NCBI GenBank assembly: GCA_951406725.2
Contig: OX597827.1
Location: forward strand, 39,928,001 to 39,992,000
Length of the DNA stretch: 64,000 bases
Direction of reading: 5' to 3'
From: Octopus vulgaris
Taxonomy: Eukaryota
Below, one piece after another: positions 10,798 through 61,549 of this stretch; position 1 is the first letter of the stretch, and each line of letters opens with the position of its first letter. The notes under the pieces were generated by a model, which was given only the letters and a program-made list of their open reading frames with translations, was not told the origin of the DNA and ran no database searches. Both the position numbers and the translations under genes were made by a program.

Positions 10798-10836
<39 letters not shown>
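10689..10836. repeat. (TC)n-(TA)n microsatellite; representative of dozens of TA/TATG/TG/GATA/TAA/CAT tracts in the window
   Basis: Direct observation. Confidence 0.95.
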
Positions 10837-10837
<1 letters not shown>

Positions 10838-11039
10838 AACTAATGTAGGATAAAATTTTTATCAATGGCCAGCATATCAAAAAATACCTTTAAAGGTTAA
10901 ATTTATAAATAACTTACAAAATAAGGGCAAAAGAAAAATTCTAATGCCAAATATGCCGAAAAAAAGACAAAATTGTCCATAACCATTATAATTTATGCGA
11001 CTCGAAACAAACTGATAGAAATTTCTAAAAAATCCGTTA

Positions 11040-11100
11040 TTACCGTATTGGTTTCAATTTCGGGGTTAATTCATAAGAATTTTCCCCTCTTCAGCGATAA
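11040..11100 (-). ncRNA. Type I hammerhead ribozyme
   Basis: UUAUCG-CUGAAGA-GGGG(AA-AAUUC-UUAU-GAAUU-AA)CCCC-GAAA-UUG(AAAC)CAA-UA^-CGGUAA: all three stems pair and the catalytic core is intact. Confidence 0.8.
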
Positions 11101-11236
11101 ATATATAAGACATAAATGGAATACTTACTCATACCCATGGAAAAAGCAAGCACTAAGTCCTGAGCAGACCTAAGTACCCCAAATATATCCAAAATAGAAA
11201 ATCTTCGGCACAAATAACTTTTGTAAGTTATTTATA

Positions 11237-11280
<44 letters not shown>

Positions 11281-11321
11281 TGTATATACATATATACATA
11301 TATATATATATATATGCATAT

Positions 11322-11390
<69 letters not shown>

Positions 11391-11439
11391 TGTGTACAGT
11401 GCTCAGGTGCACTACAACTCATCTAAAGTGTATATATAA

Positions 11440-14205
11440 TCAGGTGTAGTTTCGGCGGATTTCGGAAAGCATGAGGGCCTTAAAAGATGCAGTGTCATGG
11501 CAGTCAACAACTGACGCAGGCAGTTTATTCCATGCTTCAGCAACTCTGAGCATGAAAAAATGTTTCCGAAAGTCATGGGAGCTGTATTGTTTTCTGACTT
11601 TGTAGGCATGTCCACGTGTGTTAGACACATGGAGATCAAAAAGGTGTTCAGTGTTGTTGTTGGTGAGGTGGTTGATAACTTTGTGGGTGTTTACCAAGTC
11701 CGTCGCCAAACGCCGGAGCTTCAGTGAATCCATGCCCAGGGAAACAAGGCGTTCAGAATATGGTAGGTGTCTGATGGAGGGTATGCGTTTGGTTGCACGT
11801 CTCTGGACAGATTCCAGGAGGTCAATGTTCTGTGCAAGATAGGGGTTCCCAACTGATGATGCAAATTCCAAGTGTGGTCGTACCATAGCTGTATACAGTT
11901 TTAAATAGATGGCTGGAGAGCGGCTAACAAAAGACCTGCTGAGTGATGCCAAGACACCCTCGGCCTTCCTGACAATCTTAGAGATATGCTTTGACCAACG
12001 CAAATCACTGCTGACAGTGATGCCTAGGTCACGCTCGCAAGAGGATTTCTTGATATCAGTGTTGTGGAGGGAGTATGTGAACGCAGGGTTTTTTCTCCCA
12101 AAATGCATGGTGGTACACTTGTCCACAGCCAGTTTCAGTTGCCAGTCTGTGATCCATTGCTGCATTGTGTCTAGGTCTGATTGCAGGAAAGAGTTGTAGA
12201 CATCAGGATCTGTCCTCTTGATTTCAAGGTACAGCTTGATGTCGTCTGCATATTTCAATACTGTGGCATTCTTTAAATTGGCATCTATGTCGTTAATGTA
12301 TGCCACAAACAAGAGGGGACCAAGGACAGATCCCTGTGGTACACCCGATGACATCTCATATGGTGTAGAGTGCTGTCCTAGAACTGTGACTACCTCCTTT
12401 TGGCTGAGGATGAAGGATTTCAACCAGTTAAAAAGGTCATCCCCCACACCCATTGCAGAGAGTTTCACCATAAGCCTTTTGTGTGGCACAGAGTTGAAAG
12501 CCTTAGCAAAGTCAAGGTAGACAACATCCACCCATGAGCCACTGTCAGTAATCTGAGTAATGTCCTCAAGGAACTCGACAAGCTGGTCACTGCAGCTGGA
12601 GTTAGGGACAAATCCATATTGTGAGGGTCGGATGAGACTGTGAGAGCTCCAGAAGTTCCAGAGTGTTTCTCTGACACACGATTCCATCAGTTTTGCAATA
12701 CAGCTAGTGAGACTGACTGGGCGATAGTTGACAGGTGATGCGCGGTCGCCCTTTTTGAACAGAGGAATGACACTGGCAGTTTTCCACTGCTCCGGAGTAG
12801 CACCATTGTTGAGACAGTACTGGAAGAAAATAGAAAGCTGGTGTAAAAAGAAGTGCCTGCCACGTTTGAGAAGCAGGTATGTAACTCCATCGAGACCAGG
12901 GGAGGCATAGTTGCGCTTATTTTGAAGGTGACGTCGCAGCATTGCAGGTGTAAATTCCATAGTTGTTATGGAGTTTGCTGTTAGTGATGGTGAAGATGGT
13001 ACATTTTGACTTTCAACAGTGAATATGTTTGCATAGCACTCGGCAATGAGTTCTGCGCATTCCTTGGGGTCGTCAGTGATCTGGTTTGTGTGAGGGTTGC
13101 GAAGAGGGCCCACTGGAGAGTGAGGTCTCTGCTTTGAGTGCACATATTTCCAGAAAACCTTGCTGTCAGGATTGGCTGCTATGCACTGTTCAAATTCAAG
13201 CACTGCCTTTTTTGTCACTTGCTTGAGATGGTTGGAGGATTTATTCCGCTTCTTCCTGTTGGTGTCTGATTTATGCAACCTGTATTCCCGTTCAGCAGTC
13301 CGACGTTCCCTCCTGGCAAGTCGGACCGCTGAAGTTTCCCAAATTGCCCTTTTGGGGCGGTTCTTCTTTTTTTGTTTACGTGGCACTGATGCTGCACATG
13401 CTGCCCATATTGAGTCCAGGATACTCTGGAGTATAGTATTCACATCTCCAGAGTTGTAGAATTCACGCCAGTTTGGGTGCTGTAGTTCAGTGTGGTACAG
13501 GTTCCAATCTGCTCTCTTCCAATCGAAGGAAGCAGATTGGAGATGGTTCAGGTTTTTGTTGCCCGCAAGAGCCAGATTGGCGATGATCATAGCATGATCA
13601 GAGTCACCTAGAGGTTCCTCCGTAGTGCAATTGATAACCGCTTCAGGAGTTGTGGTGAAGAGCAGGTCCAAGGTGTTGTCGCCTCTTGTTGGAGAGGTGA
13701 CTACTTGTGACCAGTTTGAGTCCAGCACAAGCTCAACAAAATCGTTTGCACTCTGTGGCCAATGGAAGGTCTCCCAATCGATCTCAGGATGATTGAAATC
13801 GCCTGCAATAAACACATAAGTGGCTGTTTTCCTGGCAGCAGCTCGGAGGACATTGCAAAGCTGTGTGTCCCGATGGTAACTTGGGGGACGATAAACAACG
13901 CCAAGCAGGAGTGTTGACATGGTCATACGCACGTCACAGAAAAAAACTTCTTCTTGTGATTCGTTCAAATCGGCACAAGGAATTACCAAAAAATCTGAAC
14001 GAACGTAGACCATCACACCACCACCACGGCGGTTAGTGCGGTCCTTACGGAAGAGGTTGTACCCCGTAATGTTGAAAACCCCATCACAGAGTAAGGAATG
14101 CGCCCATGTTTCCGTGACAGTGATGAAGTCAGGGTCAACACTTCTGACGTAGGCGTTGAACAAATGTATTTTGTTGCATAAACTGCGAGCATTTAAGGAC
14201 AACAA
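11440..14205 (-). CDS. LINE ORF2: APE endonuclease plus reverse transcriptase (921 aa, uninterrupted)
   Basis: EN motifs NARS, TETW, GDFN, LDL, SDH; RT motifs NYRPVSL, YLDFAKAF, GVPQGSVLGP, YADD; C-terminal TRGH and WNKLP typical of the CR1 group. Confidence 0.95.
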   Translation of the reverse strand: MLSLNARSLCNKIHLFNAYVRSVDPDFITVTETWAHSLLCDGVFNITGYNLFRKDRTNRRGGGVMVYVRSDFLVIPCADLNESQEEVFFCDVRMTMSTLLLGVVYRPPSYHRDTQLCNVLRAAARKTATYVFIAGDFNHPEIDWETFHWPQSANDFVELVLDSNWSQVVTSPTRGDNTLDLLFTTTPEAVINCTTEEPLGDSDHAMIIANLALAGNKNLNHLQSASFDWKRADWNLYHTELQHPNWREFYNSGDVNTILQSILDSIWAACAASVPRKQKKKNRPKRAIWETSAVRLARRERRTAEREYRLHKSDTNRKKRNKSSNHLKQVTKKAVLEFEQCIAANPDSKVFWKYVHSKQRPHSPVGPLRNPHTNQITDDPKECAELIAECYANIFTVESQNVPSSPSLTANSITTMEFTPAMLRRHLQNKRNYASPGLDGVTYLLLKRGRHFFLHQLSIFFQYCLNNGATPEQWKTASVIPLFKKGDRASPVNYRPVSLTSCIAKLMESCVRETLWNFWSSHSLIRPSQYGFVPNSSCSDQLVEFLEDITQITDSGSWVDVVYLDFAKAFNSVPHKRLMVKLSAMGVGDDLFNWLKSFILSQKEVVTVLGQHSTPYEMSSGVPQGSVLGPLLFVAYINDIDANLKNATVLKYADDIKLYLEIKRTDPDVYNSFLQSDLDTMQQWITDWQLKLAVDKCTTMHFGRKNPAFTYSLHNTDIKKSSCERDLGITVSSDLRWSKHISKIVRKAEGVLASLSRSFVSRSPAIYLKLYTAMVRPHLEFASSVGNPYLAQNIDLLESVQRRATKRIPSIRHLPYSERLVSLGMDSLKLRRLATDLVNTHKVINHLTNNNTEHLFDLHVSNTRGHAYKVRKQYSSHDFRKHFFMLRVAEAWNKLPASVVDCHDTASFKALMLSEIRRNYT

Positions 14206-14261
14206 TTTGTACCCTGCTCGCAGTTTATGATGGTGTGTAGAGGATGGCAGGTTGTTCTGGC

Positions 14262-14375
14262 TTAGTTTCCCTGAGTTGCTGTAGTCTTTTTAGTTATTGT
14301 GGGTAGAGAGCACTCAGACCAGCTGGTATCTCTCTTCCACGTTTCAGCAGTCTTGACAAATCTCCAGATTTGTCC
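14262..14375 (-). CDS. Probable C-terminal fragment of LINE ORF1 (GQIWRFVKTAETWKRDTSWSECSLPTITKKTTATQGN*)
   Basis: Open frame from the truncation point to TAA at 14264-14262, overlapping the ORF2 reading frame, which is -1 relative to it. Confidence 0.65.
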   Translation of the reverse strand, partial: GQIWRFVKTAETWKRDTSWSECSLPTITKKTTATQGN

Positions 14376-14409
14376 ATATATATATATATATACATACATA
14401 TACATATAT

Positions 14410-14451
<42 letters not shown>

Positions 14452-14556
14452 GAAGGTTTGAAAATGCAATTTTAAAAGATGTTTATTCACTTGACCCATT
14501 TCACTTTTTTAGAAAAAGATTGTCAAAAGAAACATGTATTATCTTTGTTGTGTTAA

Positions 14557-14946
14557 GTACAGGTCATCACAAAAAATTACAATACATATATACATTCTTT
14601 GATAATAATAAGAAAATGTTAAAAACAGTTTACAGAAAAAATCTTGAGAAATTATTAAAAAGTTCATAGAAAATATTAGGATTTCATTAAAAATCATGTT
14701 TTTCTAAATATATCTCCTTCTGTGTATATATATACAACCAAAATATGACCTTTTTGAACTTATAATTTTCTGTGTATATATATATATAGATACTTCCAAA
14801 CAAACATGACTTTTAATGAAATCCTAATATTTTAATGAACTTTTTAATATTTTCCCAAGATTTTTCTTTGCAAACTGTTTTTAACATGTTCTTATTATCA
14901 TCAAAGAATGTATATATGTATTGTAATTCTTTGTGACAACCAGTAC
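14557..14946. repeat. Inverted repeat (~145-bp arms) just upstream of the LINE 5' junction
   Basis: 14557-14702 is approximately the reverse complement of 14802-14946. Confidence 0.8.
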
Positions 14947-15930
14947 ACTCTGTTTTTTCGTTGTTTAAGAAAAATGTCCAGTTCCTTGGTTTTGTGTTTA
15001 TGTTTTCGTTTCTCATTGTGTTCAACGGTTTTTTGGTGTCTTGTACCCATATATGCATGTAGATGTAGGTACGTACATATATGTATGTATATATGTATAT
15101 GTTTTATTTATTACTTTGTTATTACACGACAGAACGCACGCATCCATTTCTAAGTAAGTTTGTTCTTAATATTAATACTGATGCACACTCTTAACCTTTC
15201 TGTCCCGCTCCCTTTCTCAGCCTTCCTTCTTTCTGGTTTCCTTTTCTTCTACCTTACTGTCTCTCCCTCCTTCTCTCTCATTCTTCATTCTTTCTGGTTT
15301 TTTCTACAACCATTCCTCTTTTTTCTCTCCCCTTCCCTTTCTCTTACTCCTCCTCCCCTGTCCCATCGCTGGTCAGCGATGAGGAAACTACTGTCTTTTC
15401 TGACCTTGCTTCACCCGAGTGTAGACGGCATTTTCTGTGGCTCCTTCGCTGTTCTCAAAAATAGCATTCGTAATATTTTATCTCGTTCGGCTTAACAGCC
15501 CTTCTTGTCTGTGTTACTGTTATTCTACTTGTCCTGTCTTTTACTGATTATATTTTGTACTGTCGTTACTGTCCTGTTTTTGTTACCATTTTTACCCCTC
15601 CACAAAAAAATCTCAAATTTTATTTAATTTGATTTTCGCGGGAAGGAATGTTTCAGCCGAAGTCGCGTCTTGCCTTCACCTTCGAAACGCAGAGTAGATG
15701 AAACCATGGTGACTGAAGAAGGGGAATTTTCCTTGTGTTATTTGTCCTGTACTCTATATTTTCGTTGTTTAAGAAAAATGTCCAGTTCCTTGGTTTTGTG
15801 TTTATGTTTTCGTTTCTCATTGTGTTCGACATTTTTTTGGTGTCCTGTACCCATATATGCATGCATATATACATGTAGATGTAGGTACATACATATATGT
15901 ATGTATATATGCATATGTTTTATTTATTAA
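14945..15930. mobile_element. Penelope-like remnant with ~170-bp direct terminal repeats
   Basis: 14945-15115 is repeated at 15748-15925; contains cttcgaaac...ctgaagaagggg; related copy at 18650-19130. Confidence 0.5.
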
Positions 15931-16743
15931 TTTGTTATATATATATATATATATATACTAGCTGAACTCATGAAAAATTCACAGAAAATATAAAAAATGT
16001 AAGCTTCTGTAAATTGTGTGCTGGTGTCATGAGAAATATTTTTATATTGCGACAGAGAGCTGACGGAAACATTAGCACACCAGACGAAATGCTTAGCGGT
16101 ATTTCGTCTGTCTTAGCGGTATTTCGTCTGTCTTAGTGGTATTTCGTCTGTCTTAGCGGTATTTCATCTGTCTTAGCGGTATTTCATCTGAGTTCAAATT
16201 CTGCCAAGGTTGACTTTGCCTTTCATCCTTTTGGGGTCAATAAATTAAGTACCAGTTGCGTAATGAAGTCGATCTAATCGACTGGCCCTCTCCCACAAAA
16301 ATTTCAGGACTTGGAACTGTAGTAGAAAAGTATATTGTGACAGTTACAGAATATAGAAAGAAGTGTAAAACCGATAACTATATAATCCAACCAAAATATC
16401 TTAGTTAAGCAAACATAAACAGAATTACTATTTAGCCTTCAAATACATCATACATATTCAGAGAACCCTCTTGATTTAGTAGTACAAAACGTTGTATTCT
16501 TTTATTCTTTTACTTGTTTCAGTCATTTGACCATGGCCATGCTGGAGCACTGCCCTTTAGTTGAAGAACGTGACCCCTGAACTTATTCCCTGGACTTTTT
16601 CCTTGTAAGTGGTTATTCTATCAAACTCTTCTGCTGAACAGCTAAGTTTCAGGGATGCAAACACACCAACATCGGTTGTCACACAATGGTGGGAGGGGGA
16701 CAAACACAGACACACACTCACACACACATAAGTATATACATAT

Positions 16744-16793
<50 letters not shown>

Positions 16794-17558
16794 CTGGTTT
16801 GGAGGTGGTGGTGATGCTGGCTAGTGCGATCTTGTGGTTTGCTGGTATGCTGAGAGAGATCCAGCTCTGTTTCTCCTATTTTCTAAGTACATCTGCCTTT
16901 GCTCTTGACTCATGTGTTCTTGATTCTGTAGATCTCTATCTCTCTTATTTTGAATCCTCTGCCATAGGATACATTCCCTCTCCTCTTGGCTTATTTCATT
17001 TCTTCTCTGTCTCCTCCTCACGCGATTTTGATTCCTTATTTCCAGCCGCTGTTCCTCACGCAACAGTTCTCTCCTATGCTGATGCTCTTGTGCTGTTTCC
17101 TTCATGTGATTATTCATATTTTAAAACTTGTTATTAAAACAATAAATCTCCAAAATGATTCAGAGTGGTTCAATTGAAAAGCATATACGAATGTATTAGA
17201 CAGTTTTTGTTTAAAAGGTGAAAATATTTCTGAAATACTTACCTAATATGCAAGAACACATTATATAGGATACAGTAATTAATTATATTGCAGGTAAGTA
17301 AAAAGTAAAGGGGAAAAAATAGAATTAATATATTTGATTTTGTTCAGTTCTATGAATTTAATTTTTTAAAATGCTTTCATCAATTGCTTGATACAAGAAA
17401 AAATAAATTGGAAAAATCCTGACCAAAACAGAGAAATTCCAACTTCATAAAAAATATAGAAAGAAAAAGTTGCATTTATTTCCACCATGTGACACTTATT
17501 ATCGCACACACTCACACATGCACACATATATTTATATATGTGTATATGTTTGTGTGTT

Positions 17559-17602
<44 letters not shown>

Positions 17603-17989
17603 TTTTAGTTTTTGTTTACTTATACACATCAACAAACAAGCCAATTGAACAACTTTGTGTGGTTGTTCAGTTTGCTAGAAATAACAGCCAAATCTCTCTC
17701 ATACTGTGCTCCTGTTAGTATTAAGGAAAGGGAAAATAGAATTAATATTTTTGATCTTGTCCGGCTCGAGGAATTTTTCTTTTAAATGCTTTCATCCATT
17801 ACTTGATAGAAGAAAAAAGAAATTGGAAAAATCCTGACCAAAACAGAGAAATTCTAACAAAAATATAGAAAGAGAAAGAAAATGTATTCAAAAGCCAAAA
17901 GATGTTTTTTAGCTGAGGTGTAATTTTATAATTAAAACAAATTCAAAATTAAAAAATAAAAATGCAGCTTCTTGAGATCCAGAGTGAAT

Positions 17990-18593
17990 TGCAGAAGGTC
18001 CTCAACTCTAACTTACAGAAAATGTCAGTGGTTTAATCGTGGAGAAGAGCTAGCTCAGCAGCCCAGAAGTGGTCTGCATCTAAGGAAGATTCTTTTGAAT
18101 GTTTAGTTGGATATGCATGGAATAGTTTATCATGATCTGCTTGATAATAATCACCAGTAGCTCCTGGTGTACACTGCCAACAACCAACACACTTGAAAGC
18201 AGCTTTACAGCAAAAACATCCATCATAACAAACACACGAGTCATCCTTCATCGTGATAATAATGCACTAAAGACCAAAGATCTCCTAGGAAAATATGCAT
18301 GGGAAATTATACATAACCCACCATATTCTTCATATCTTACATCTCTTTACAATTTTACAGAATCATTTGCATGGATTAAGACTTATTTCAAGAGCAGAAG
18401 TTAAAAACTAGTTAATTTCCTTTTCCACTTCTAAGCTTAAGGATTTTATCAATGTGGAATCAAAAAGCTTATTGACAGATGAAAAGAAGTCATAGAGAAG
18501 AATGATGACTATATTAACAATAAAATAGATCGGATATTGCTTTTTTTAAATGTTTTATTGAACCTTAAAAAACAAAACTTTTGTTACAACCTG

Positions 18594-19272: not shown

Positions 19273-19691
19273 TATAAAAGAAAAAGAAAATGGAGATTGG
19301 GAAGGTAATAATTGTTTATTAATAACAAATCAATCATCATCCCTTACAGCTGTTTCAATTAAAACTCAGTGAATTAATTAAATATTAAATTCACATGCCC
19401 TGAGCATAATATCTTCAGAGGGAAAAAAAATATACCCTTGGATGTTTTATATTTGTGTTTATGGATTCATTATATCAGTCTGATATAATGAATCCATAAA
19501 CACATATTTCAAACATCTAAGGGTATAATATCTTTTTACCCTCTAAAGATATTATGCTCAGGGCATGTGAATTTAAGATTTAATTAATTCACTGAGTTTT
19601 AATTGAAACAGCTGTAAGGAATGATGATTGATTTGTTATTAATAAACAATTATTACCTTCCCAATCTCCATTTTCTTTTTCCTCTTTTATA
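19273..19691. repeat. Foldback palindrome with ~205-bp arms, each carrying a hammerhead-like motif
   Basis: Arms are reverse complements around ttatatcagtctgatataa. Confidence 0.9.
19340..19423 (-). ncRNA. Type I hammerhead-like ribozyme with long stem II and palindromic stem III
   Basis: UCCCU-CUGAAGA-[long stem II]-GAAA-CAGCUG-UA^-AGGGA; the 10.1-11.1 position is a U-U mismatch. Confidence 0.6.
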
Positions 19692-27042: not shown

Positions 27043-27147
27043 TTATTCTGCCAAAGACCTATAATTGGTATCTTTGACAAATTTCGCCAGATATGTACAG
27101 CTCAGTTCCATTTTGATATTCTTGTCAACAAAATAATCCAGGGCACC
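27043..27147 (-). CDS. NATD1: NATD1-like exon 3 (GALDYFVDKNIKMELSCTYLAKFVKDTNYRSLAE*)
   Basis: Acceptor ttttataattttcag; phase 0 matches exon 2; ALD...L.C.Y..K matches the NATD1 C-terminus; total protein 125 aa. Confidence 0.88.
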   Translation of the reverse strand, partial: GALDYFVDKNIKMELSCTYLAKFVKDTNYRSLAE

Positions 27148-40408: not shown

Positions 40409-41881
40409 ACTTTCATCCCTTCATAAGTTGATAAAATAAGTACCAGTTGAGCACTGGGTCAATGTAAATGACTTACCCACCTTCCCACCCAGAATTGCTG
40501 GCCTTGTGCCAAATTTGAAACCAATCTTTTTTCCAGCTCTAAGGTGGTAGAATTGGTAGCACACCAGGCAAAATGCTTAGCAGCATTTCGTCTGTCTTTA
40601 CATTCTGAGTTCAAATTATAGTGACAAAAGCAGTATTAATACCAAAAGATATTATTTATCCCCACTTAAAAGTGGATGTTGTGTTAGAACACAGAATACT
40701 GTGAGAGTTATCATGAGAGAACCTCTCATATGGACTTGTGGTGCGTATAAGTATTCATGTTTATATCACTAGCAGGAGATAATCCATTACTATCACCACT
40801 GCCAACACTACCAGATGCCGTGATTGCAGCCTTCCTTGGCTTTATCAATGGTAGATGCCCAAAAGCTGGAAATAGCAGCAATCCCTCCACCAGTGATATA
40901 CACTGTGATATACACCAGTGATATACACCAGTAATATACTTTTTTACAATAGGACAAATTTATATTATTTGCTCTCAACCAAAGCAAGGCTCTATAACCT
41001 CACTACCTCCTCCTGATTAAAAAAAAAAGTATGGAGTGGGTCTCTAATAAACCAGCCTCTCAGTCCACAAAAAAAAGTATCTCAGTACCTAAATAGGCAC
41101 TGATATCACAAATAGCCATTGGGCTTATTCCTTGACCCACTTCGGTCGTGAATGACCATGGGATTGATTGCACCTAGAAAGTTACCCTCCAAGGTACAAG
41201 ACCGGGCAAGGTTGTTTGTGGAAGGCCAGCAGTCACCTATGCATACCGGCCTCCCCTCTCCACACCACTGATGTTATCCAAGGGAAAGGCAAAGGCCAAT
41301 ACAGCTTGGCACCAGTGATGTCGCAACTTATTTCTACAGCTGAGTGAACTGGAGTAATGTGAAATAAAGTGTCTTGCTCAAGAACACAACATGCAGCCCG
41401 GTGCGGGAATTGAACTCACAACCTCACAATCATAAGCTCGATGCTCTAACCACTGAGCCATGCTCCTTCACACTGGGCTTATTACAAAACAATTAGTAGC
41501 AACAGAAGCGGTTAATATTTATCACCCCTTAAAAGTAGACGTTGCATTAGAACACAGAATATGGCAATAGTTACCATGAAATATATATCTGTGTGTGTGT
41601 GTGTGTGCGCGTGTGTGTGTGTGTGTTTGTGCGTGTGTGTGAGTGTGTGTGTGTGCGTGTGCATGCATGCACGTTCTTGTCTCTCCTTTTCTTAATATTG
41701 TTCAATGGTTGTAAATGATTGTCCCAGTCATACAAGCAGTATCATTCATTTCCAATATCCCAAGAGAACATGTCTGGTTATGGAGAAATGTTACCTTGCT
41801 CAGAATCAGGTGAAGGTTGACAAACAGAAAGAGCTTCCAGCTTAGAAAGTTTGCCTCAATAAACCCTGCCCAACCCATGCA

Positions 41882-42001
41882 ATGACACAACAAACGAAAA
41901 TTAATTCAAATGAAAACTAGTTCAAAACAAGCAATAAGTGAAAGAATACTTTAGCTATGACTTCAACGATCCCTTTTCCACGAAAGTGGTCTGGTACTTC
42001 A
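41882..42001 (-). pseudogene. Tandem partial duplicate of the NATD1 exon 2 3' half and its donor site
   Basis: Matches 42070-42173 (gcaataagtgaaagaatactttagctatgac...ggtacttca). Confidence 0.85.
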
Positions 42002-42121
42002 TTGGCTCAAATTTATGTTAAAAGGATGACGACAATGATGGTGGTGGTGGTGGGAGGGTGATGACAAGGATGACATAACAAACAAATATTAATTCGAAAC
42101 AAGCAATAAGTGAAAGAATAC

Positions 42122-42246
42122 TTTAGCTATGACTTTAGCGATCCCTTTTCCACGAAAGTGGTCTGGTACTTCAGTATGATAGAGATCTACTTGGTTGTCT
42201 TTGATCCATTCATACTCAAGGATGGCCTGACTTGGTTCTTTGTGAT
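42122..42246 (-). CDS. NATD1: NATD1-like exon 2 ([41 protein letters not shown])
   Basis: Acceptor tttcttttcatcag; GT donor at 42121; contains DLYHTEVP and the RGKGIA acetyl-CoA motif typical of NATD1/YjdJ; 125 nt, phase 1 to phase 0. Confidence 0.92.
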
Positions 42247-44764
42247 CTGATGAAAAGAAACAAAAATCAATGGAATAAAAATGGAATGCAACTGGTTATT
42301 TAGGTAATGGGGTAAAAAAGGATAAATGATAAGGAAAGTAAGTTGATCCCTGACATGAAAATGAAAACTGAAAAATGAAAATGAAAACTGTAAAATGAAA
42401 ATGGAAATTGAAAAATGAAATTAAGAATTAAAGAGAAAAGGAAAAGTATTTTTTTAAATATTCAAATGAAACAACAGAAAAATTATAAGAAATATATTAA
42501 AATGAAACAATGGAAAAATTATATGAAACAATGGAAAAATTATAAGAAAAATATTAAAATGAAACAAGGGAAAAATTATAGCAAAAACTTGAATAATTAT
42601 TTTAGAATTTTTTTTTTAATTTAAAGAAATGTTGACAAATAAAAAAGGAAATGGAAAATCAAAACCAAACCCTTATTGTAATAGAGCTAAACTAAGTATA
42701 TCGTTGTATGTAACTAAAACACTGCCAGCTCTCCCTCTCAATCTATCACACAAGCCCTAAGTAACACATGCATTACATGGCTTCTCACACAAACTTGTCT
42801 TCTCTCTGAAGGACTGAGACAGACAGACACAGTGACAGAGGGGAAAATGAAAAACAAAGAGAATTGCTTTCTAGCAGGTGAAAATATCTTCTGGTCTACT
42901 GGGTGTATAACTGTCTGGCTATATTTTTCTTGATATAAAGGTGATATCAATATATGTCAGTTGGTCCCAGTCCTCAACATAGGAGTTTCTGCATGGTCAA
43001 AAAACATGCTGGAAATAACAGTCAATTCTCTTTCAAATCATGTCCCACTGTCTTCAATAACAGATGTATTGAGCAATGTAGTCCCTGATATACAAAAGAT
43101 GGGATGGTCACAAAAGGATTATTTCTTATAGGTATATTTGATCGAGGAAATTCTGGAGGTAAAACAGCGAACAAACAAGTTTACTTCTGGCCAATGAAGA
43201 ATGGTCTCTGCACAATCACTCAACCTATTAAAAATTGCAGACAAATTTCCTTCAAATCACCAAGTGCCCTTTTAAATTAGTAAAGATCATATTGGACAAT
43301 ATATAGCCCTACATAGGTGTGGCTGTGTGGTAAGAAGCTTGCTTCTAACCACATGGTTTTAGGTTCAGTCTCACTGCATGGCACCTTGGTCAAGTGTCTT
43401 CTACTATTGCTTCAGGTTGTGAGTGCATTTGGTAGATGGAAACTGAAAGAAACTCATCGTATGTGCGTGTGTGTGTGTTTGTATCCCACCATCACTTGAT
43501 AACTGGTGATGGTGTGCTTACAGCCCTGTAACTTAGTGGTTCAGCAAAAGAAACTGATTGAATGAGTACCAGGTTTGGAAAAATAAGTACTGATGTTGAT
43601 TCAATTGACTAAATTTTTTCAAGGTGGTGCCCCAGCATGGCCACAGTCTAATGACTGAAACAAGTAAAACAATACACACACAAACTGTTTTATGGAGATA
43701 ATATTTCATCACTGAATTAAAAATAATAAGAGAGGTCATGTCAATACTGATTAAAGTCAACAGGGGTAGTGTTGCCTCCATCGCCTCCAAATAAATCACA
43801 TGAGACAGTCTATTCTAAACTCCATTTGAGCCTACCATTGGCTATAAAAACTCACCTCCTCCTCGTCTCAGAGTCTGTTGGTTCCAGACCTTCTAAGGTC
43901 GAACCACTGACCACATTACAGTGACCTCCATCTTCATCGCCACCATCATGTCTCTCACCAAGGTCATCAACATCTCTACACAGCACCAACAACACTGCAC
44001 TGGTTCTAACATATCGCAATTTGTGAGCTTTCCTCACCAGGGTTAACAGCAAACATACAACTGATGCAGATGCATGTAGATATATGGATAAGTGTCCACC
44101 AACCACTTCCATTTATCATTCAGCTTGTGGCTGGCATTAAAGACATTTAAAGTTACCACCTTGTTCCATGTATTTCTTTATACCGTGTTCCTGTCAAACA
44201 ATATTATAGCCTTCTGAGTAAAGTCACATTAGATGGAATACAACCTATCTTTCTAAATAGCATTTGGTGATAGTGGAAGGGAATGTGAAAGTAAAAATAG
44301 AAAGCTAATGAAGAAAATTAGAAGTGCTGAAGTCAGACCACAATATGCTAAGCCTTGTAAAAGTGGCAAGCTGGCAGAAATGTTATCTTACCAGACAAAA
44401 TATTTAGCAGCCTTTCTTCTGGCTTTACATTCTGAGGTCAGATGTTGGCAAGATTGACTTTGCTTTTCATCCATTTGGAGTCAATGAGATAAGTACTAGT
44501 TCAATGTAATTGACTAGCCACTCCCCTCAAAATTACAGGCTTTGTGCCAAGAGTAGAAAGAATATGGTAAGCCTTGCAGAAGAGGTGACAAAAAGATTTG
44601 AGATGAATGGTTACAAGTTGTGCAGCATATTCATCAAACAGACATGGGTGTCTCTACATGGCTGCTCAACTTGCTAGAAATAGAAGTCAGATTTCCTTCA
44701 GCTCACACCCTACTGTCTTAAAAAGGTAAGGACATGTTAGAGAATATAGTCCTACATACTTAAA

Positions 44765-45195
44765 GTGAAGGAAAGTTATGGAAGAGGGAGACCCAGAAAG
44801 ACATGGGACAAAGTACTGAAGACCAATCTCAAAACACTGAGCCTTACAAAGGAGATGACAGAAAACTGGGATATGTGGTGCATTGTTGTATACAACAAGA
44901 CCCACCCACCACAGCAGAATATCCTAAAACTAAGATGTCATGTAAAAATCATTGGTGTGGGTGCTGGTATCATATAAAAAGCACTGGTGCTGGTGTCACA
45001 TAAACAGCACTGGTGCTGGTGTCATGTAGGAAGCGCACTCTGTAAAGTGGTTGGTGTTAGGAAGGGTATCCAGCTGTAGAAACCAAGGCAAAACAGACAA
45101 TAGAACCTGGTGCAGCCTCTGGTTTTGCCAGTTCCTGTCAAGCCATCCAGCATAGAAAACAAGTGTTAAATGATGTTGATGATGATGATGATGAC
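44765..45195 (+). mobile_element. RTE 3' end with (GAT)n tail
   Basis: GRGRPRKTW C-terminal motif, then the shared aggaagggcatccagctgtagaaac...gttaaatgatgatgat-type tail. Confidence 0.7.
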
Positions 45196-45410
45196 ACTGC
45201 AAAAAGGTTGAGAATGTCACAGCTGAAATGTAGATGTAGAGGCACCTTCATCTATTTTGCCATGCTTGTTATGGAGGTTGTTATTCACAGCAGCAACTTT
45301 CATAGCAAGCATTAATTTATTCTTAAGCATCATGTTGACCTGATCAAATAGAACTATGATCAAAGATGTTCTATCCTGTGGGGTGGCAGTCACAGATAGC
45401 ATATCTAGGT

Positions 45411-46263
45411 TAGTGATTCTCAACCATTTTTTATTTATGAACCCCTTTGATAACTATTTTACTCTGGTGGACCCCATTACAGATACTTCTTTCAAAATCC
45501 CTATTTTGTTTCTCCCACATTCACTTTTGTAGGTTTATGACAACACTCTCTGACAGAACATGTTTCAGTGGCCAAAAACATAACTACGGAGATGTACTTG
45601 CATAGCAAGTGACCTGATCTGAGATCGTGTGCTGGAACGAAAACAATTGCAGCGGGGAAGGTGTTTATAAGCCATTTGAGAAACACACAAAAACCGTTAG
45701 ATTCACTTCAACATTTAAATTTAATTTATCAAAATATTTTCGTCGCTTTCAGACCTTGACAAAATTCTGTTTCTTGTAATAAATACATCTAAGGCAATTT
45801 TTTTTCACGGACCCTTAAAATACTGCTGTAGATCCCCAATTTACCATTTTGCTTATATGGAGGTAATTATTCTGGAGGTAAAACAGCAAACAAGTTTACT
45901 TCTGGCCAATGAACAATGGTCTCTGCACAGTCACTCAACCTATTAAAAATTGCAGACAAATTTCCTTCAAATCACCAAGTGCCCTTTTAAATTAGTAAAG
46001 ATCATATTGGACAATATATAGTTTTCATTTTCATGTCAGGGATCAACTTACTTTCCTTATCATTTATCCTTTTTTACCCCATTACCTAAATAACCAGTTG
46101 CGTTCCATTTTTATTCCCTTGATTTTTGTTTCTTTTCATCAGATCACAAAGAACCAAGTCAGGCCATCCTTGAGTATGAATGGATCAAAGACAACCAAGT
46201 AGATCTCTATCATACTGAAGTACCTGGAGGAGGGGTCATATAAACCCTTGTTGGGAACCACTG
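45411..46263. mobile_element. Non-autonomous hAT (Buster/Charlie-type) MITE carrying captured local sequence
   Basis: TIRs tagtgattctcaacc / gttgggaaccactg; degenerate 8-bp NNNTANNN TSD (atctaggt/atgtacat); related copies at 25978 and 36654. Confidence 0.7.
46021..46224 (+). pseudogene. Inverted copy of the NATD1 intron 1 3' end plus the first 82 nt of exon 2
   Basis: Reverse complement of 42165-42368 with 2 mismatches in 204 bp by manual alignment. Confidence 0.92.
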
Positions 46264-46738
46264 ATGTACATTAGCCACTGTCCTCTTCCTTAAAGATTTG
46301 TGGTGGTGTGGTGAGTTAGATCTGGTTATTTCTCGCAGGCCGACTGGCAGCGTACCTACACTATTATATAAAGATGAACGTAGTAACAAAAGGTAATAGA
46401 TTTGGATACGTTACAATGGGTTATTGAAAGGATGTGTAATTTTGCAGTGGGCTCATTTACTTTCAATTATCCTCGATTTGCAAAGTTTCAGTGTCCTGTG
46501 TGGTATCACGATACTCCTGATGATCGAACCACATCATTTGTGATCTTAAACCCCGATCTTCAGATACTTACAACCTTCAAGCGGACTTTAACTGCTTCTA
46601 CGTCTTATGAAAAGCCGGTACTTGCTGCAGGTGTCCCCAACATAAACACTGAAGGACTAAAGGGCTCCACTCGTCAGGAACATTAATATCCGAGAAGGTA
46701 ACTTCCATGACCCTGAACTTCTGCGAGCTATAAACTCC

Positions 46739-46983
46739 GGTACTACTTAAGAAGAGTGGTCCCGGTGCGCGCACTCGCATGCTCGAGCTAGCTAGTCGTG
46801 ACTAGTCGATCCTTTGCGTTTTATTTACTGTTTTAAAAAAAATTATTTACTTTATGTAAAAAAATTATTTATTTTGCGTTTTATTTACTTTGCTAGGTAG
46901 TCGTTGTAGGATCGACTAGTCACGACTAGCTGGCGCGGATGCGCGAGTGCGCGCACTCGGGACCACTCTTCTTAAGTAGTACC
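46739..46983. mobile_element. Young foldback MITE with a 9-bp TSD (Mutator/MULE-like)
   Basis: TIRs of about 75 bp, outer 25 bp perfect (GGTACTACTTAAGAAGAGTGGTCCC); perfect TSD ATAAACTCC at 46730-46738 and 46984-46992. Confidence 0.88.
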
Positions 46984-47265
46984 ATAAACTCCGACGGACA
47001 AAACCACTTAAGGTCATCCCAATAACTACGTTGTAATTATAACTATAGCAAACATACACACATATCCTGAAAATGCCTACTGGTCGCTCCAGATCGAAAA
47101 ACAGCAGACAATATCTTCCTTGTACCTAGAGTTCTAGAACAGACGAAACAGAAAAAAAGACGGGATGGTCACAGCTGGACACCTTTGATCAGGATTAAAC
47201 AACATCAGCAACAAACATATCGTTAGTAACAATAATCCTTTCTACTATAGGCACAAGCCACTTAC

Positions 47266-47413
47266 TTGGAGGTTGTGGCGGTAAATCTATTATAAATTTA
47301 TTCATATTAGGTTTATGGACAACGGTAAAATCGTCAGGTAAAGCTGCGGCCATAGTCTTCGCTCTGGAAGCTAAAAGTCGTGTAACCATTCGGGGTCCAG
47401 TTAGCAAAGACAT
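47266..47413 (-). CDS. NATD1: NATD1-like GNAT acetyltransferase, coding exon 1 (MSLLTGPR...FTVVHKPNMNKFIIDLPPQPP, phase 1)
   Basis: ATG at 47413; GTAAGT donor at 47265-47260; 148 nt joins in frame to exon 2; FTVVH...KFII resembles the NATD1/YjdJ N-terminal strands. Confidence 0.85.
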
Positions 47414-47892
47414 TGTTGAGAATAAATGAACGTTTGTTTACGTTTCAGAGACAGATGCATTTGTCGGTAGACACGTGAAACAGAGACAAGTATATTACAA
47501 GGATACTCAGCTGAACAGCACACCAATCCGACATTGCCCACGTCTCTCTCTCTCTCTCTCTCTTTCTCAGTCCTTCAGAAAGAAGATGAGCGGTGTAAGA
47601 ACCAATATAATGCGTCCTTTTTTTTTTACTTTTTTCCTTATTTTACTTGTTTCAGTCATTAGACTGCGGTCATACTGGGGCACCGCCTTGAAGACTTTTT
47701 AGTTGAATGTATTGACCCCAGTATTTGTTTTAAAGCCTGGTACTTATTTTACCTATATCTTTTGTCGAACCGCTAAGTTATGGTGGCGTAAACACACCAG
47801 CACTCGTTGTCAAGCGGTGATGGTGGGGAGGGACAAACACAGACGCAAAGACACGCCCACGCACACACAGCTATATGTGTGTGTGTGTGTGT

Positions 47893-48205
47893 GAAGGCGC
47901 GTGGCTTAGTGGTTTGGGCATTGGGCTCTAGATCGCAAGGTCACGAGTTCGATTCCTGGCAAAGCATTGTGTCCTTAAGCAAGACACTTTATTTCACGTT
48001 GTTCCAGTCCACTTAGCTATCAAAAATGAGTTGTACCTGTATTTCAAAGGGCCGGCCTTGTCACACTGAATCTCCCTGAGAACTACATTAAGGGTACACG
48101 TGTCTGTGGATTGCTCAGTCACTTGCACGTTAAGTTCATGAGCAGGCTGTTCCGTTGATCGTATCAGCTGGGACCCTCGTTGTGGTAACCGACGAAGTGC
48201 TCCTA
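47893..48205 (+). repeat. tRNA-derived SINE, family C (related heads near 21810, 41130-41470 minus, 61275, 61982)
   Basis: gaaggcgcgtggcttagtggt...gagttcgattcc...tgtgtccttaagcaagacacttt. Confidence 0.8.
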
Positions 48206-48409
48206 ATATATATATATGAAAGCATATATATATGCATGAAAGCAAATATATATATGCTTTCATGCTGCACAAAGTTTTGTCAATGAAAGAGTCATAGTTT
48301 CAAAGAGACGAAAATATTTTGAAACAAATTAAATTTAAATGTTGAAATGAATCTAACATTTTTTTGTGTGTTCTTAAATGGCTTACAAACATCTTCCACA
48401 CTCCAACTA

Positions 48410-48707
48410 ATTTTTCTAATAATTTTTCCTTTTCTCTTTTTAATTCCTATTTTCATTTTTCAATTTTCATTTTCATTTTCCTGTTAAAGATCTTTTTATT
48501 TTTCTTATCTTTTATCAGTTTTCCTCATTCCTTAAATAACCTTGTTGCCATTGTTTTTTTGTTATCGTTATTTTCATTATTATTATCTGATCACAAAGAA
48601 CCAAGTCAGACCATTCCTAAGTATGAATGGATTGAAAATAACCAAGTAGATCTTTATCACACTGAAGTACTAGACCATTTTCATGGAAAAGGAATTGCCA
48701 AAGTCAT
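48410..48707 (+). pseudogene. Diverged inverted copy of NATD1 exon 2 and its upstream intron, located upstream of the gene
   Basis: 48590-48707 encodes [39 protein letters not shown]; acceptor AG is changed to TG. Confidence 0.85.
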
Positions 48708-48769
48708 CATCATCATCATCACCATCATCATCATTGTGATGTATAGGAAGAAAAAAGACAGAAGCGAAG

Positions 48770-50125
48770 AGAGAATTACGGTAGTCTTACCTATCGGTCC
48801 AGAGAAAGGGTCACTTTCAACATCTTCATGCTGTCATGATCTCCAAGGTTCACTCCACGCCCACATGTGCTATCCAATGCTCTACCTACTGGGTCTCGTG
48901 CTTCAATGAATGCCACATGTCCACCATGGCACTTCCAGTGGGATCCACAGGCTCCACTTCCAACAGAACATGCTACTCCCTCACATCCGATCCTCCCCTA
49001 CAACACAGCTTGGCTCATAATGCACCCCTGATCTGAAGATCATTCAGCCAATCTGCCCACACCCTCTTCAATCGTGTAGAGTCCAGCAGTTTCCAACACA
49101 TAGAAAACAGTTCCTGCATGCTCGTCTTGAGCCCATTTTTGGGATCTCATTCCCTCTCCGAAACATCAACACACCAGCCTTGTCTCTCCGTAGCTTGAGT
49201 CGCAGGGCAGCTCCTCCTTCCATTGCCTCCGGTGGTTTGGCAGTTAGCCCAAAACTCTTCAGGTGGCTTATGACCTTCTTTGCCAACACTATGCTCTCAT
49301 CCACCAGGAAGTCATCAATATAGGAGTTGGTGGCTCTTTTCATTTTGTCAGCCTTTCCCAGGATGGTCTTGAGAATTGTCACCATAATCTTCGGTGCTGA
49401 ATTCAGCATGAATCCCAACCTGGTCAGGCAATATGTCCATCCCTTATACCTTACCAACTGATATTTCCACAGTCTCTCAGCCACATGCACCTGCAGGTAT
49501 GCTGACTTCAAGTTGACGATTGTGGAGACCCCCGTCGTCTGCCTCCACTCTCTCCAGGTTTCGCTACAAATATCCGTAGCTTCACTGCCCATATGGCACA
49601 ATATGTAGTCATTCAGCTCCTGGAAATCCAATACTGGCCTGACTTTATGTTTTGCTGGCTGCACCACTGCAATCAACAGTAGCACTCCAGTTTTCGCTTC
49701 CTCCTTCCAAGGAATCAGAGCACTTTCCTTGATCCATTAGTCCACCTCGCCCTTGAACTCACTTCTGGCATCCCCATTCAGGATGTGCTGATAGCAGCAT
49801 ACTGTGTTCTTCAATGTTGGAGGATCTCCCTTCCAGTGCCATTCCATTGTCCACTGCCGGCCATCGAACACAGCTCAAAAATCTTTGTCTTTGATGGTGT
49901 GTGCAGCATATTTTTCTTCACAGCTCTCACCACTCTCCTGTCGCAAATTCACAGCACATAGTGCCCCTGCATCACCGAACACTACACCGGCTTCATTGAC
50001 CGTAACACCTCCCAAGTGGACAATGGCATCCATCCCCATCACGACATCAATCCCGTCCACTACACGATCAATTACAATAGCCTGCAACCTCAGTCTTGTT
50101 TTCCACCACACCTTTGCAAATGACG
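48770..50125 (-). mobile_element. Decayed Gypsy-like LTR retrotransposon pol fragment (protease-RT)
   Basis: DVVMGMD, KVRPVLDF.ELN, LKSAYLQ, RLGF.LNSAP and YIDD motifs, with stops. Confidence 0.8.
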
Positions 50126-54644: not shown

Positions 54645-55885
54645 TGTCCTTGGCTGTCACAGCCCATGTTTCACTGCCATGTAGCATAGCTGTTCACACA
54701 CAGACATCATATGATCTGCCTTTACTCTGAGAAAGAGGCCCTTTGTTGCCAACAGAGGTAGGAGCTCTCTGAACTTTGCCTAGCCTAATCTTATTCTCAC
54801 AGCTATGCTCTCGGGGCATCCACCTCCACTACTAACTTGGTCACCTAAATAACAGAAGCTATCTACTTGCTCTAACTTGCCTCTCAGGCAGTCTATTTTC
54901 TGCACATTTTCAGCCTTTATTTTACCTGCGCATCTTCCACATACAAAATCTAGTTTCCCTGTTAACTTTCCTCTGATATTGCTGCACCTTTTATGTGTCC
55001 AAAGCTTACATCAAGTGCATCTTCTACCTGTGCCTTTTCTACAGTTTGAGTAGGGCCATCTACCTGAAGGGATTTGTGATTTATCCGCTTTCCTACTTAT
55101 TAAGACTTTGGTTTTTGTTACATTAGCTCTAAGGCCCTTTGATTCTAGACCTTGCTGCCATACCTGGAACTTCTTCTCTAGTTCTGGCAGTAATTCAGCA
55201 ATAAGAATGAGGTCATCAGCATAGAGGAGCTCCCAGGAGCAGCCTGTCTTAAATTTCTCTGTTATTGCCTGAAGAACTATGATGAACAAGAGGGGACTAA
55301 GTACCGATCTTTGGTGAACCCCTACTTGTACCTTGAATTCTTCACTGTATTCATTGCCAACCCTCACCTTACTGGTAGCATCCCTGTACATAACTTGTAC
55401 AGCTCTCACCACCACTCATCTATCCCTAGTTTCAACATTGACCACCAGATAAGGGATCAGGGGACCCTGTTGAAGGCTTTCTCCAAGTCAACAAAGGCCA
55501 ACAACAGAGGTTTATTTTTGGCTATGTATTTCTCCTGCAGCTGCCTTACTAGAAATATAGCATCAGTGATGCTTCTCCTTGTTACAAAACCAAACTGCAT
55601 CTCGTCTAGGTTAACTTTGTCCTTAATTAGTTGGGCTACGACTCTCTTTGTAACTTTTATCTCCTGATCCAAAAATTTGATACCTCTGTAATTATTTCTA
55701 TCTAAGATATCACCTTTACCTTTGTAGCAGTTGACTATGGTGCTGCTATACCAGTCATTAAGTATGACTCCTTCATGGACCACCTGATTTACAATACAGA
55801 TGACTAGACCATAACCCACACTGCCAGATATTTTAAGCATGTCAGCAGTGATTTCTGATGGGCTGGGGGCTTTCCCTGTCTTCTC
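54645..55885 (-). mobile_element. Decayed RTE-clade LINE RT fragment
   Basis: NYRGIK, FVDLEKAFNRVP, VGVHQ.SVLSPLLF and ELLYADDL motifs, with frameshifts. Confidence 0.88.
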
Positions 55886-57793
55886 ATCAATCTATACTGT
55901 AATGGAGAAAGTTGCTTATTAATTAGGTATGTAACAATTACTAAAAGTTCTAAAAGACAGCAATTATTAAAGGGTTGACCATCTGGAAATATTTTTATAA
56001 GTTCATGTTCTATGAAATTTCCTATAATTTTGATTTCTCAAGATAATTGAAATGTTTATACTCTAATTTCTTATATGTTTAAATATTCATTGCATTCATT
56101 TTGACCAATTCTTCACAAATTTAAATATTCATTGCATTCACTGCGGAGTATTCCATTTTTATTTGCAAAGTCTCACATTCTCTTTTAATGTTTTCATTTC
56201 AAGTTTTAATTCGATATTTGGAAAACCGACAGTTTAATTCTATTAATGTATATGTAATGTAAAAACATTATTAATTGAATGAAAATTTTTTTAAATACCC
56301 ATATAATTTTAATAAAAAAATTTTAAAGGGATTTTGTTGTTATGGCTGTTTGGAACACTATAAGCCTTACAATAATAACTATCCAGACCGATTTTGGCCA
56401 TTTCCCCTTTTCACTCTCAGATGTATTGATGTTTTTTCAATATTTTTTTCCCATTAAACACATTTTATGGAATGATGATGCTGAAGTAACACACGTGTGG
56501 TCCATTGGTGGAAAAAAAACTAAATAAATTGTAATCTAAATTTTTACCCCCACCATCACTTTGAAACCGCAACCTGTTCACTGACAAAACTCCGTGCTGC
56601 ATCCCTTTTATGAAGCTTTGTCAGTGAACAGGTGGCTGTTTCAACGCGAAGAGAATATTTTCACACAAATTAAATTTAAATGTTGAAGTGAAACTAATGG
56701 TTTTTGTATGTTTTTGAATGGCTTACAAACATCTCCCATGCTGCAATTGTTTTTGTTCCAGCACACAATCTCAGATCAAGTCACTTGCTATATAAGTATA
56801 TCACTGTAATTTTTTTTAAATCACTATGGATAAATGCCAGTAGTGACCTTTACAGACTCTCCAATATTTTAATTTTTAAACAGAAACAATCGGGGACTGG
56901 GTTGCAAAAATATTTATAATTTCTCAAATTTTCTTTTTTATAGCTTATAAATGTATTTATGGGGGCAAAATATTGAAAATATCAATACATGCAAGAGTGA
57001 TAAAGTAACGAGGAGGGTTGTCTTTAGATGTGCTAGAAATAACAGCCAAATTGCCCTTAAATTACTCACTTTTCCCTCTGAAAATAATAAGAATTCCTTT
57101 TTAATTTTCTTACTGAAAATGTTCTTCCCATGGTTTTGAAATAATCTATGCCATTTGAAAGGGATTTGTATAAATTTTCATCAAAAGATACCCATTTTCC
57201 TGAAAGTTATGAGGGAAAAAAGTCAGATCGTGTGAATTTTCCAAAACACCTCTCTCCATCCCCTTGGAAAAATTCTTTCCCATAAATCCCTATATACTCT
57301 GAAGCCACATCTAAGTGGTATTTGTAGAAAATTTTGTTAAAAAGAATCCATTTTTCTGGATGTTATGTCGGGAACATATACATCTGTAGTAATGCCCATT
57401 CATTAGGTTGAGGAAAAAGTTTGTGTGCCATGTTAAGCATTATTTTTAAAATAGTGCTTAACACAGTACACAGACTTTTTCCTCGGCCTAGTATTTATAC
57501 ATTTTTTTTCTTTTCATGTTTATTTCATTCATTGTTTGTAATATTCTCTCTCTCCTTCTCTATTTCTCTCTCTCTCACACACACACACTGCAAAGCTTAC
57601 AGATGGGTTGCTGAATTGTATGTTGCTTCGAAGGGAAGGTAAAACTTGACAAATTGCTTCTCCCTCTGTTGTTGGACTAAAACTGTTATTGTTTAAAAGA
57701 GAGAGATTATGACTGTGATAAAATAATGAAAGCAATATTTACTAAGCAAGTGAGCACTATTAAACAAAGAAATAATTAGACATAAAATATAGA

Positions 57794-60379: not shown

Positions 60380-60684
60380 TCAATTCAGTAACTCCAATTC
60401 AGATATATTTCTTTCTTGGAAAATAATATCGAGTGCCTTCTCCATTGGTTCATTGGTCCCGGCAAGATTTCTGACAACTTTCTTTGCCCATACAAAATAC
60501 TGTTGGACCCTTTCTTCAGTCCAGCCAACTGGTGTACTTCGGTTCAAATCACGAAGGTTGTATAGTTTGTCTGCCAGTTTCACCAACTTTGCACGGTGGC
60601 TGCTATTCTTTGCATGTTCGATTTGCAGTTTCTTACGCTCTGCCTTGGCAAGACTTTTGTCGTCTGTTACTTCAGCAACAATTC
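60380..60684 (-). CDS. HDDC3: HDDC3/MESH1 (ppGpp hydrolase / NADPH phosphatase), terminal coding exon
   Basis: IVAEVTDDKSL.K.ERK.LQIEHA...AKLVKLADKLYNLRDL...P.GW..ERV..YF.WA is diagnostic of MESH1; polypyrimidine acceptor ...ttttgttgatag; upstream exons not found in the window. Confidence 0.93.
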
Positions 60685-61549
60685 CTATCAACAAAAGAGA
60701 GAAAAGAGACAGCGAGAGATAGATAAAGGTATTATAAGGTATACAAGCACCTTCAGGGACTTGTGGTCAAGAATTTGCAATGAAATGGTTTTAAATTTGG
60801 TTTCACAGCATGGCACAATGGGCATGTTACTACACATTACTACTAGATTGAATTTGGTAAAGGAAAACTCTGAAAAACATTGCCATATGCAAGTATGCCT
60901 GAATTGCATGTTCATGTATGTTTTGTGTGTGTTTGTGTATGTGTCTGTATCTGTGGTCATGTCGGTAGTTTTGCTTACATCCCTTACTGCTGTTTATATC
61001 CCATAGTTTATCAGTTAGACAAATAGAAATCAATAATATAATTACAAGACTTGAAAACAAGGACTGGTATAAATATGATTGACTAAATATTTTTAAAGGC
61101 AGTGTCCCAGGATGGTTGCACTCCAGTGACTGAAAGCAGTAAAAGTGTAAAGAATAACACACATGCACACATGTATGTATGTATGTATGTATGTATGTAT
61201 GTATGTATGTATGTATGTATGTATGTATGTATGTATGTATGTATGATTGTATGTATGTATGTATGTATGTAAGTGGAGGCACATGGCCTAGTGGTTAGAG
61301 CAGCGGACTTGTGGTCAAGGGATCATGGGTTCAAATCACAGACCAGGCGATGTGTGTGTTTATGAGCGAAACACCTAACCTCTACATGGTTCCAGCAGAA
61401 GGTAATGGTGAACTTCTGCTGACTATTTCCTCCTGCATCTTGCAGCTCACCTGCGACGGACTGGCGTCCTGTTCAGGTGGGGAACCTATACGCCAAGGAA
61501 ACCGAGAAACCAGACCTTATGAGCCAGGCATAGCTCGAGAAGGAACAAA

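Follow-up and report, generated by a model that had tools for sequence, protein, structure and literature searches.

In a stretch of 64,000 nucleotides (nt) of Octopus vulgaris DNA (the window, whose positions are used for all coordinates below), the first intron of the single-copy gene NATD1 carries a 369-bp insert, at 45862-46230, which was assembled from two templates and lies inside an old miniature inverted-repeat transposable element (MITE). One part of the insert is an inverted copy of the exon 2 acceptor region, and the other a direct copy of an intronic segment. With a probability of about 0.72, the insert represents two nearby copied pieces that were likely written in one template-switching repair event in the germline, and that likely persist as a tolerated scar. 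An earlier note, based on the letters of the window, had described the inverted copy as a newly born double-stranded RNA structure that might switch editing or splicing, an interpretation that is partly supported by the present analysis. The direct copy of 43150-43306 that adjoins the inverted arm, the MITE enclosing both, and two further copies of exon 2 nearby extend that description.

The NATD1 gene and its inverted arm

NATD1 lies on the minus strand and encodes a product of 125 amino acids with a match to the domain PF14542. The exon translations of the window agree with the named O. vulgaris NATD1 protein (P0003), the protein segments from exons 2 and 3 are identical to those of O. bimaculoides NATD1 (41/41 and 34/34 residues), and exon 2 is unchanged in all four named octopus NATD1 proteins. 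The gene, the insert and its donors are arranged as follows:

27043..27147, minus strand: NATD1 exon 3 to the stop codon, starting at 27147
42122..42246, minus strand: NATD1 exon 2, 125 nt, intact; whole and with 0 other letters in contigs of RNA runs X8 and X19
42165..42369, minus strand: donor 2, the native arm; final 123 nt of intron 1 and first 82 nt of exon 2
43150..43306, plus strand: donor 1, an intronic segment copied in direct orientation
45411..46263, no strand assigned: host MITE, an old non-autonomous DNA element with terminal inverted repeats and a decayed flanking duplication
45862..45868, plus strand: left filler, 7 nt; host TGGA followed by GGTAA repeats a 9-mer of donor 1
45869..46021, plus strand: insert part 1, direct copy of 43150-43306 with 2 substitutions and one 4-bp deletion
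46020..46224, plus strand: insert part 2, matching 42165-42369 in inverted orientation (203/205), with an AG shared with part 1
46225..46230, plus strand: right filler, 6 nt; a 7-mer together with the preceding C, after which host sequence resumes
47266..47413, minus strand: NATD1 exon 1, coding part, 148 nt, with a GT donor; RNA joint 47266 to 42246 in runs X8 and X19

The inverted copy reported earlier was confirmed and proved slightly longer than first given: 46020-46224 is the reverse complement of 42165-42369, 3650 nt away, with 203 of 205 nt complementary (previously 202 of 204). This is the longest of the 1596 inverted pairs in the window. Both mismatches (46102 and 46118) are intronic, leaving the 82 exonic nt perfectly matched. 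The arm has three matches in the 2.8-Gb genome, all at the NATD1 locus, and is therefore not a dispersed repeat. Although the NATD1 unit holds 22 inverted pairs of at least 80 nt, some flanking exon 2 on both sides, this pair is distinctive among them in its identity and in its coverage of coding sequence.

Anatomy of the insert and its host

The joints of the insert carry short microhomologies of 1-4 bp, namely TGGA on the left, AG in the middle, and C plus AGG on the right. Matches of 1-3 bp can arise by chance; two longer ones are less easily explained in this way. The 9-mer at the left joint (four host and five filler bases) occurs within 40-50 kb only in donor 1, its copy and the joint itself, and the 7-mer formed by the right filler with the preceding C is likewise confined to donor 1, its copy and this site. 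The fillers match only donor 1 locally, and both were probably copied from it. The best other genomic matches of the donors are either short or 77-78% identical. Taking 14 MITE copies as stand-ins for the empty site, neither a target-site duplication nor a poly(A) tract was found at the insert. Insert and donors differ by 4 substitutions in 358 bp, or 1.1% (95% range 0.3-2.9%).

The host MITE, which we take to be of hAT type, is far older. Its flanking duplication of 8 bp retains 5 of 8 letters alike, and other copies of the family are 83-89% identical (40 scored of 1607 first-look candidates). The insert sits 33 bases from the right end of the element and is absent from all 14 family copies that were fetched. 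The block that follows the insert is kept in 7 of these 14, at a distance of 5 letters (one copy), 26-27 letters (five) or about 36 letters (one). Host bases therefore appear to have been lost on insertion, with 5-27 bp as the most likely size of the loss. Repeats with distant copies make up 42% of sampled DNA, so that landing in one is an ordinary event.

Presence in other sequencing runs, and age

At least half of 47 sampled words were present in 9 of 24 listed runs, from seven studies; an insert-free genome is expected to hold about 49% of the words, and at most 75% if the donors carried the alleles of the insert. The sampled words are not independent, which leaves the P values rough, and one holder run may be the source of the assembly. 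The run list is also ranked towards holders, with the small-share runs X10-X18 and X20-X24 left out. Four runs (X5, X8, X9 and X19) were compared as contigs with the window at 88% likeness, and the results that follow apply among the matches listed.

The left joint is bridged by a contig of the DNA-like run X5 (45731-45960), with 131 and 92 letters on its two sides, 0 other letters and 11 gap letters. The middle joint is bridged in the RNA-like run X8 by a contig at 45902-46128, of depth 2.4, with 118 and 107 letters and one other letter. In both X5 and X9 the arm forms an exact repeat node of 205 nt, and a 571-nt contig that starts 30 letters inside the arm crosses the right joint. The depth of the node is 1.35 (X5) and 1.45 (X9) times that of single-copy sequence, where 1.0 is expected if the insert is absent, 1.37 if heterozygous and 1.73 if homozygous; alongside these intermediate values, the joint-spanning contig of X5 stands at full single-copy depth. 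No empty allele was seen among the three compared runs that cover the insert. The 11 extra letters of X5 within 45731-45960 mark a different allele, either of the insert itself or of the sequence next to it.

These observations answer the concern, raised in the earlier note, that the segment might be an assembly chimera. The near-identity of the arms would fit such an artefact, but the copy-specific differences, the contigs of the independent runs X5 and X8 over the left and middle joints, and the depth of the two-copy node refute it for the left and middle joints and leave it scarcely credible as a whole.

In the listed non-repeat pieces, which are biased to unbroken stretches, X5 and X9 differ from the window by 2 letters in 7 pieces and 3 letters in 8 pieces, respectively. 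Given the 1.1% divergence from the donors, the insert is thus young but likely older than the differences between these individuals, although copying errors could inflate its age. To call it newly born is accordingly an overstatement, as it is carried by runs of several studies. A cross-species age, derived from four organism labels that hold the insert, was considered and dropped: X5 (label D) differs at only 2 letters in 7 pieces, so the labels do not show separate species.

A model of the insertion

The features of the insert suggest the following course, in an order of steps that we infer. A break or stalled fork in the old MITE would have left a TGGA end able to prime on donor 1, 2.7 kb away, where 153 nt were copied with one slip. 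Synthesis would then have switched by way of AG to donor 2 on the opposite strand, at a distance of 3.65 kb, with a further 205 nt copied. A short return to donor 1 would have preceded rejoining of the host by AGG, with the loss of roughly 5-27 host bases. [quoted passage not shown]

Capture of the two pieces by the transposon itself, during its own movement or gap repair (a Pack-type event), is suggested by the position of the insert inside the MITE, 33 bases from its right end. This is nevertheless a very improbable origin, as the MITE is 11-17% diverged from its relatives and its flanking duplication has decayed, whereas the insert is about 1% from its donors. Moreover, the genome holds one loaded copy and no second, where more would be expected had the captured pieces moved with the element, and with repeats so abundant the location in one is unremarkable.

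Predicted pairing with exon 2 and possible effects on RNA

In the NATD1 transcript the antisense arm emerges 1.04 kb past the exon 1 donor and 3.65 kb ahead of its partner in the same pre-mRNA. It spans branch-point-like sites, the polypyrimidine tract, the AG of the 3' splice site and 82 nt of exon 2, and the geometry proposed in the earlier note therefore holds. Folding predictions allow the arm to pair with this acceptor in unspliced RNA, with a duplex energy of -357 kcal/mol against -28 and -40 kcal/mol for the single arms. The paired part of the exon contains 32 adenosines, 23 of which would recode if edited. Skipping of exon 2 would, as claimed, shift the frame, with a computed product of 56 amino acids.

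This predicted potential is not matched by the RNA contigs. In the RNA runs X8 and X19, which come from two studies, a single contig each (975 nt at depth 139 in X8, 970 nt at depth 121 in X19) carries the GT-AG joint 47266-to-42246 and the whole of exon 2 with 0 other letters, and continues past the exon. Exon 2 is thus free of changed letters in each RNA run's major contig, a comparison to which minority editing is invisible. Skipping that replaces the normal mRNA was likewise not found, with the exon 1-exon 2 joint at depths of 139 and 121 and full-length proteins annotated; the comparison covered a stretch without exon 3, at 20.1 kb from exon 1, in which no joint of exon 1 to exon 3 could be seen. 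Segments of intron 1 that RNA left uncovered were not counted as evidence. Majority skipping or editing of exon 2 is not supported, and of the claims made earlier the geometry of pairing stands, while the reading as a functional switch found no support.

In the reading favoured here, of a tolerated repair scar, assembly of the spliceosome on the emerging acceptor would win in most molecules, since the arm is transcribed 3.65 kb before its partner. A small minority of transcripts may nonetheless pair, and be hyper-edited, mis-spliced or degraded. Editing of human Alu pairs falls with distance on a scale of 800 bp (PMC4066801), which at 3650 nt would give an editing factor of 0.01, if that scale can be transferred to octopus.

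Several points weigh against this reading. The run-contig matches listed leave aside 94 rows with other letters, as well as 1219 joints and a further 4643 loose ends, and the arm side of the right joint comprises only 30 letters, one short of the bridging rule. The one other letter in the intronic contig of X8 could be an edit. Minority forms are lost from contigs, hyper-edited reads would fail to assemble, and decay could hide a skipped product; X8 and X19 are of unstated tissue. The predicted duplex is, furthermore, far stabler than either arm alone, and in people, inverted exon copies abolish inclusion in CHM (PMC8756506) and MANBA (PMC6549551).

The most serious alternative accepts the same origin, and proposes that a sizeable minority of neural transcripts form the duplex, which would act as a new editing-complementary sequence (ECS) recoding exon 2 nt 1-82, or would divert transcripts to skipping and decay. 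In its favour, the arm is perfectly complementary to the exon, to the branch-point-like sites, and to the tract and AG, and the insert is present in RNA run X8, at a depth of 2.4 that could stem from DNA. According to two cephalopod studies, editing outside coding regions falls mostly in repeats and hairpins (PMC9068888, PMC9699675), and in octopus mostly in introns and 3' untranslated regions with hairpins (PMC9699675); kilobase-scale structures are an acknowledged blind spot of coleoid work (PMC8891338). Inverted Alu duplexes have also been associated with exon skipping (PMC13019944). With unchanged exon 2 in the contigs of both RNA runs, this alternative is considered unlikely.

Selection of the insert as a tissue- or temperature-dependent regulatory switch for NATD1 has still less in its favour and is judged highly improbable. 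None of the three compared runs covering the insert lacks it, and the exonic part of the arm shows 0 differences in 82 nt, yet this number is expected at 1% divergence, the run list is ranked towards holders, and drift explains the spread. Similar patches number thousands by extrapolation (see below), and no regulated NATD1 isoform was seen among those annotated.

Only the last four residues distinguish the two isoforms annotated in O. vulgaris, a difference that implies a donor site inside exon 3, at about 27059. Elsewhere in intron 1, a fold-back element at 46739-46983, about 280 nt past the exon 1 donor, has a predicted energy of -137 kcal/mol (z -18); it is multi-copy by run depth, and would offer ADAR a substrate closer at hand than the long-range pair does. 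No Rfam match was found in 41000-50000.

Comparison with known systems

The NATD1 insert works like a multi-template repair insertion and shows those features of the class that can be tested. Templated insertions made with Pol-theta by synthesis-dependent microhomology-mediated end joining (SD-MMEJ) form a related class. Multi-template germline insertions with microhomology have been described in people (Osia et al. 2021, PMC8421209). Like the microhomology-mediated templated insertions (MMB-TI) of that study, the octopus insert draws on several nearby templates in both orientations, has microhomology at its joints and replaces host bases in the germline. It departs from them in distance and length, its templates lying 2.7 and 3.65 kb off and its tracts measuring 153 and 205 nt, where that study searched about 100 bp around each insert, and in having the acceptor of a coding exon as one template. 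Class 2 templated sequence insertion polymorphisms (TSIPs; Onozawa and Aplan, PMC5110952) are similarly break-site patches a few hundred bases long, with no target-site duplication or poly(A). They have distant donors and are polymorphic, whereas both NATD1 donors lie within 4 kb and no empty allele was seen.

The nearest disease counterparts are CHM exon 12 (PMC8756506) and MANBA exons 8-10 (PMC6549551), in which an inverted copy of an exon and its flank lies within the same pre-mRNA, with microhomology joints and an out-of-frame exon at risk. Their stems measure about 1.7 and 13.1 kb around short loops, of 274 nt in CHM, and abolish normal mRNA. In NATD1 the stem is 205 bp, the loop 3650 nt, the arm lies upstream of the exon, and the major form of the mRNA is the normal one.

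Editing-complementary sequences of the GRIA2 Q/R type are imperfect, conserved, and shown to direct editing. The NATD1 duplex is near-perfect and young, and no editing was seen in the contigs. An imperfect, conserved duplex with compensatory changes was not found here, with 203 of 205 nt paired and the pair too young for covariation. The arm is only a candidate ECS. Like such sequences and inverted Alu pairs (PMC4066801 and PMC13019944), it is an intronic stretch complementary to part of its own transcript, either exon or splice region; unlike an Alu arm, it is unique sequence and not a repeat.

Frequency of comparable patches, and their possible significance

A background survey covered 1.8 Mb of the genome (G000) outside the window, on eight chromosomes, and yielded 1603 local pairs, of which 57, including those of the window, were non-repeat. 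Copies of 80-1000 bp lying 200 bp-10 kb from a non-repeat partner were counted, excluding pairs less than 200 nt apart, more than 1000 nt long, or with more than 30% repeat or tandem sequence; some of the inverted pairs retained may be the ends of low-copy elements. Inverted copies numbered two at 95% identity or more and five at 90% or more, direct copies three and seven, and there were two other two-template composites. Extrapolation gives about 3,100 composites (380-11,200) and 7,800 inverted copies of at least 90% identity (2,500-18,200) per genome, and a few percent of such copies are estimated to touch an exon by chance.

A composite at G000:C5:50055004-50055247 (L094) has the same build as the NATD1 insert, joining two local copies, one direct (162 bp) and one inverted (87 bp), with 5 bp of microhomology, and is flanked by a 22-bp direct repeat. 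Another, at G000:C20:20198787-20199201 (L148), combines two direct local copies at 91%. Related structures include an inverted duplication of 3.7 kb at 99.3%, with a spacer of 843 bp (G000:C5:50020424-50028687, L091), and a near-perfect palindrome of about 600 bp at 97%, whose building block was copied from a site about 400 bp upstream (G000:C14:39896827-39897450, L045). Within the window, 19280-19433 and 19528-19681 form inverted arms of 154 nt, 97% complementary, around a 94-nt loop.

The origin of new double-stranded RNA structures over coding exons is of interest in cephalopods, with their extreme recoding. It might be proposed that local template-switch repair keeps writing near-perfect antisense copies of unique sequence into octopus genes, some of them over exons, and that in an animal whose ADARs are very active these give birth to new ECSs, first as perfect, promiscuously edited duplexes and later as selective ones; NATD1 exon 2 would then be a dated example, with neural editing confined to nt 1-82. 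This proposal is considered unlikely. The locus has a built-in control, in that exon 2 nt 1-82 are paired and nt 83-125 unpaired. If such editing takes place, new editing sites can arise by way of repair patches; if there is none, the locus shows that an acceptor tolerates a perfect 205-bp complement lying 3.6 kb upstream, unlike in the human disease cases. On present evidence the insert is an ordinary mutation of a known class in an eye-catching place.

A literature search returned no paper with both NATD1 and octopus, and none on point, by title and abstract, for templated insertions as an origin of editing structures. NATD1 was not found in the examined supplements of PMC8382921, PMC9699675 and PMC9068888, which did not include the editing-site tables. 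As far as searched, the NATD1 insert is not in print, and editing tables outside those supplements may bear on it.

Other copies of exon 2 and neighbouring features

Three partial copies of exon 2 lie within 7 kb, at identities of 99%, 92% and 78% that correspond to three ages. In addition to the insert, the copies are:

41907..42001, minus strand: direct copy of the exon 2 end and donor site, 95 bp, 92%, in intron 2; a spare donor site
48422..48707, plus strand: older inverted copy of exon 2 and its acceptor, 78%, upstream of exon 1, with the acceptor AG changed

The older inverted copy was considered as a second gene and rejected, having a dead acceptor and, over 39 codons, 7 amino-acid-changing and 9 silent differences. 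Both inverted copies end in an A-rich, purine-skewed tract by the acceptor (42290-42450: 52% A, 73% purine), a post-hoc observation which may point to a fragile or easily opened template.

Upstream of NATD1 and in tandem with it, an exon at about 60380-60700 on the minus strand has no Pfam match and presumably resembles the C-terminus of HDDC3/MESH1. Broken retroelement pieces lie at 48790-50100 and 54700-55900 on the minus strand, with a reverse-transcriptase-like frame without a Pfam match at 49068-49736 and an RVT_1 match at 55457-55891.

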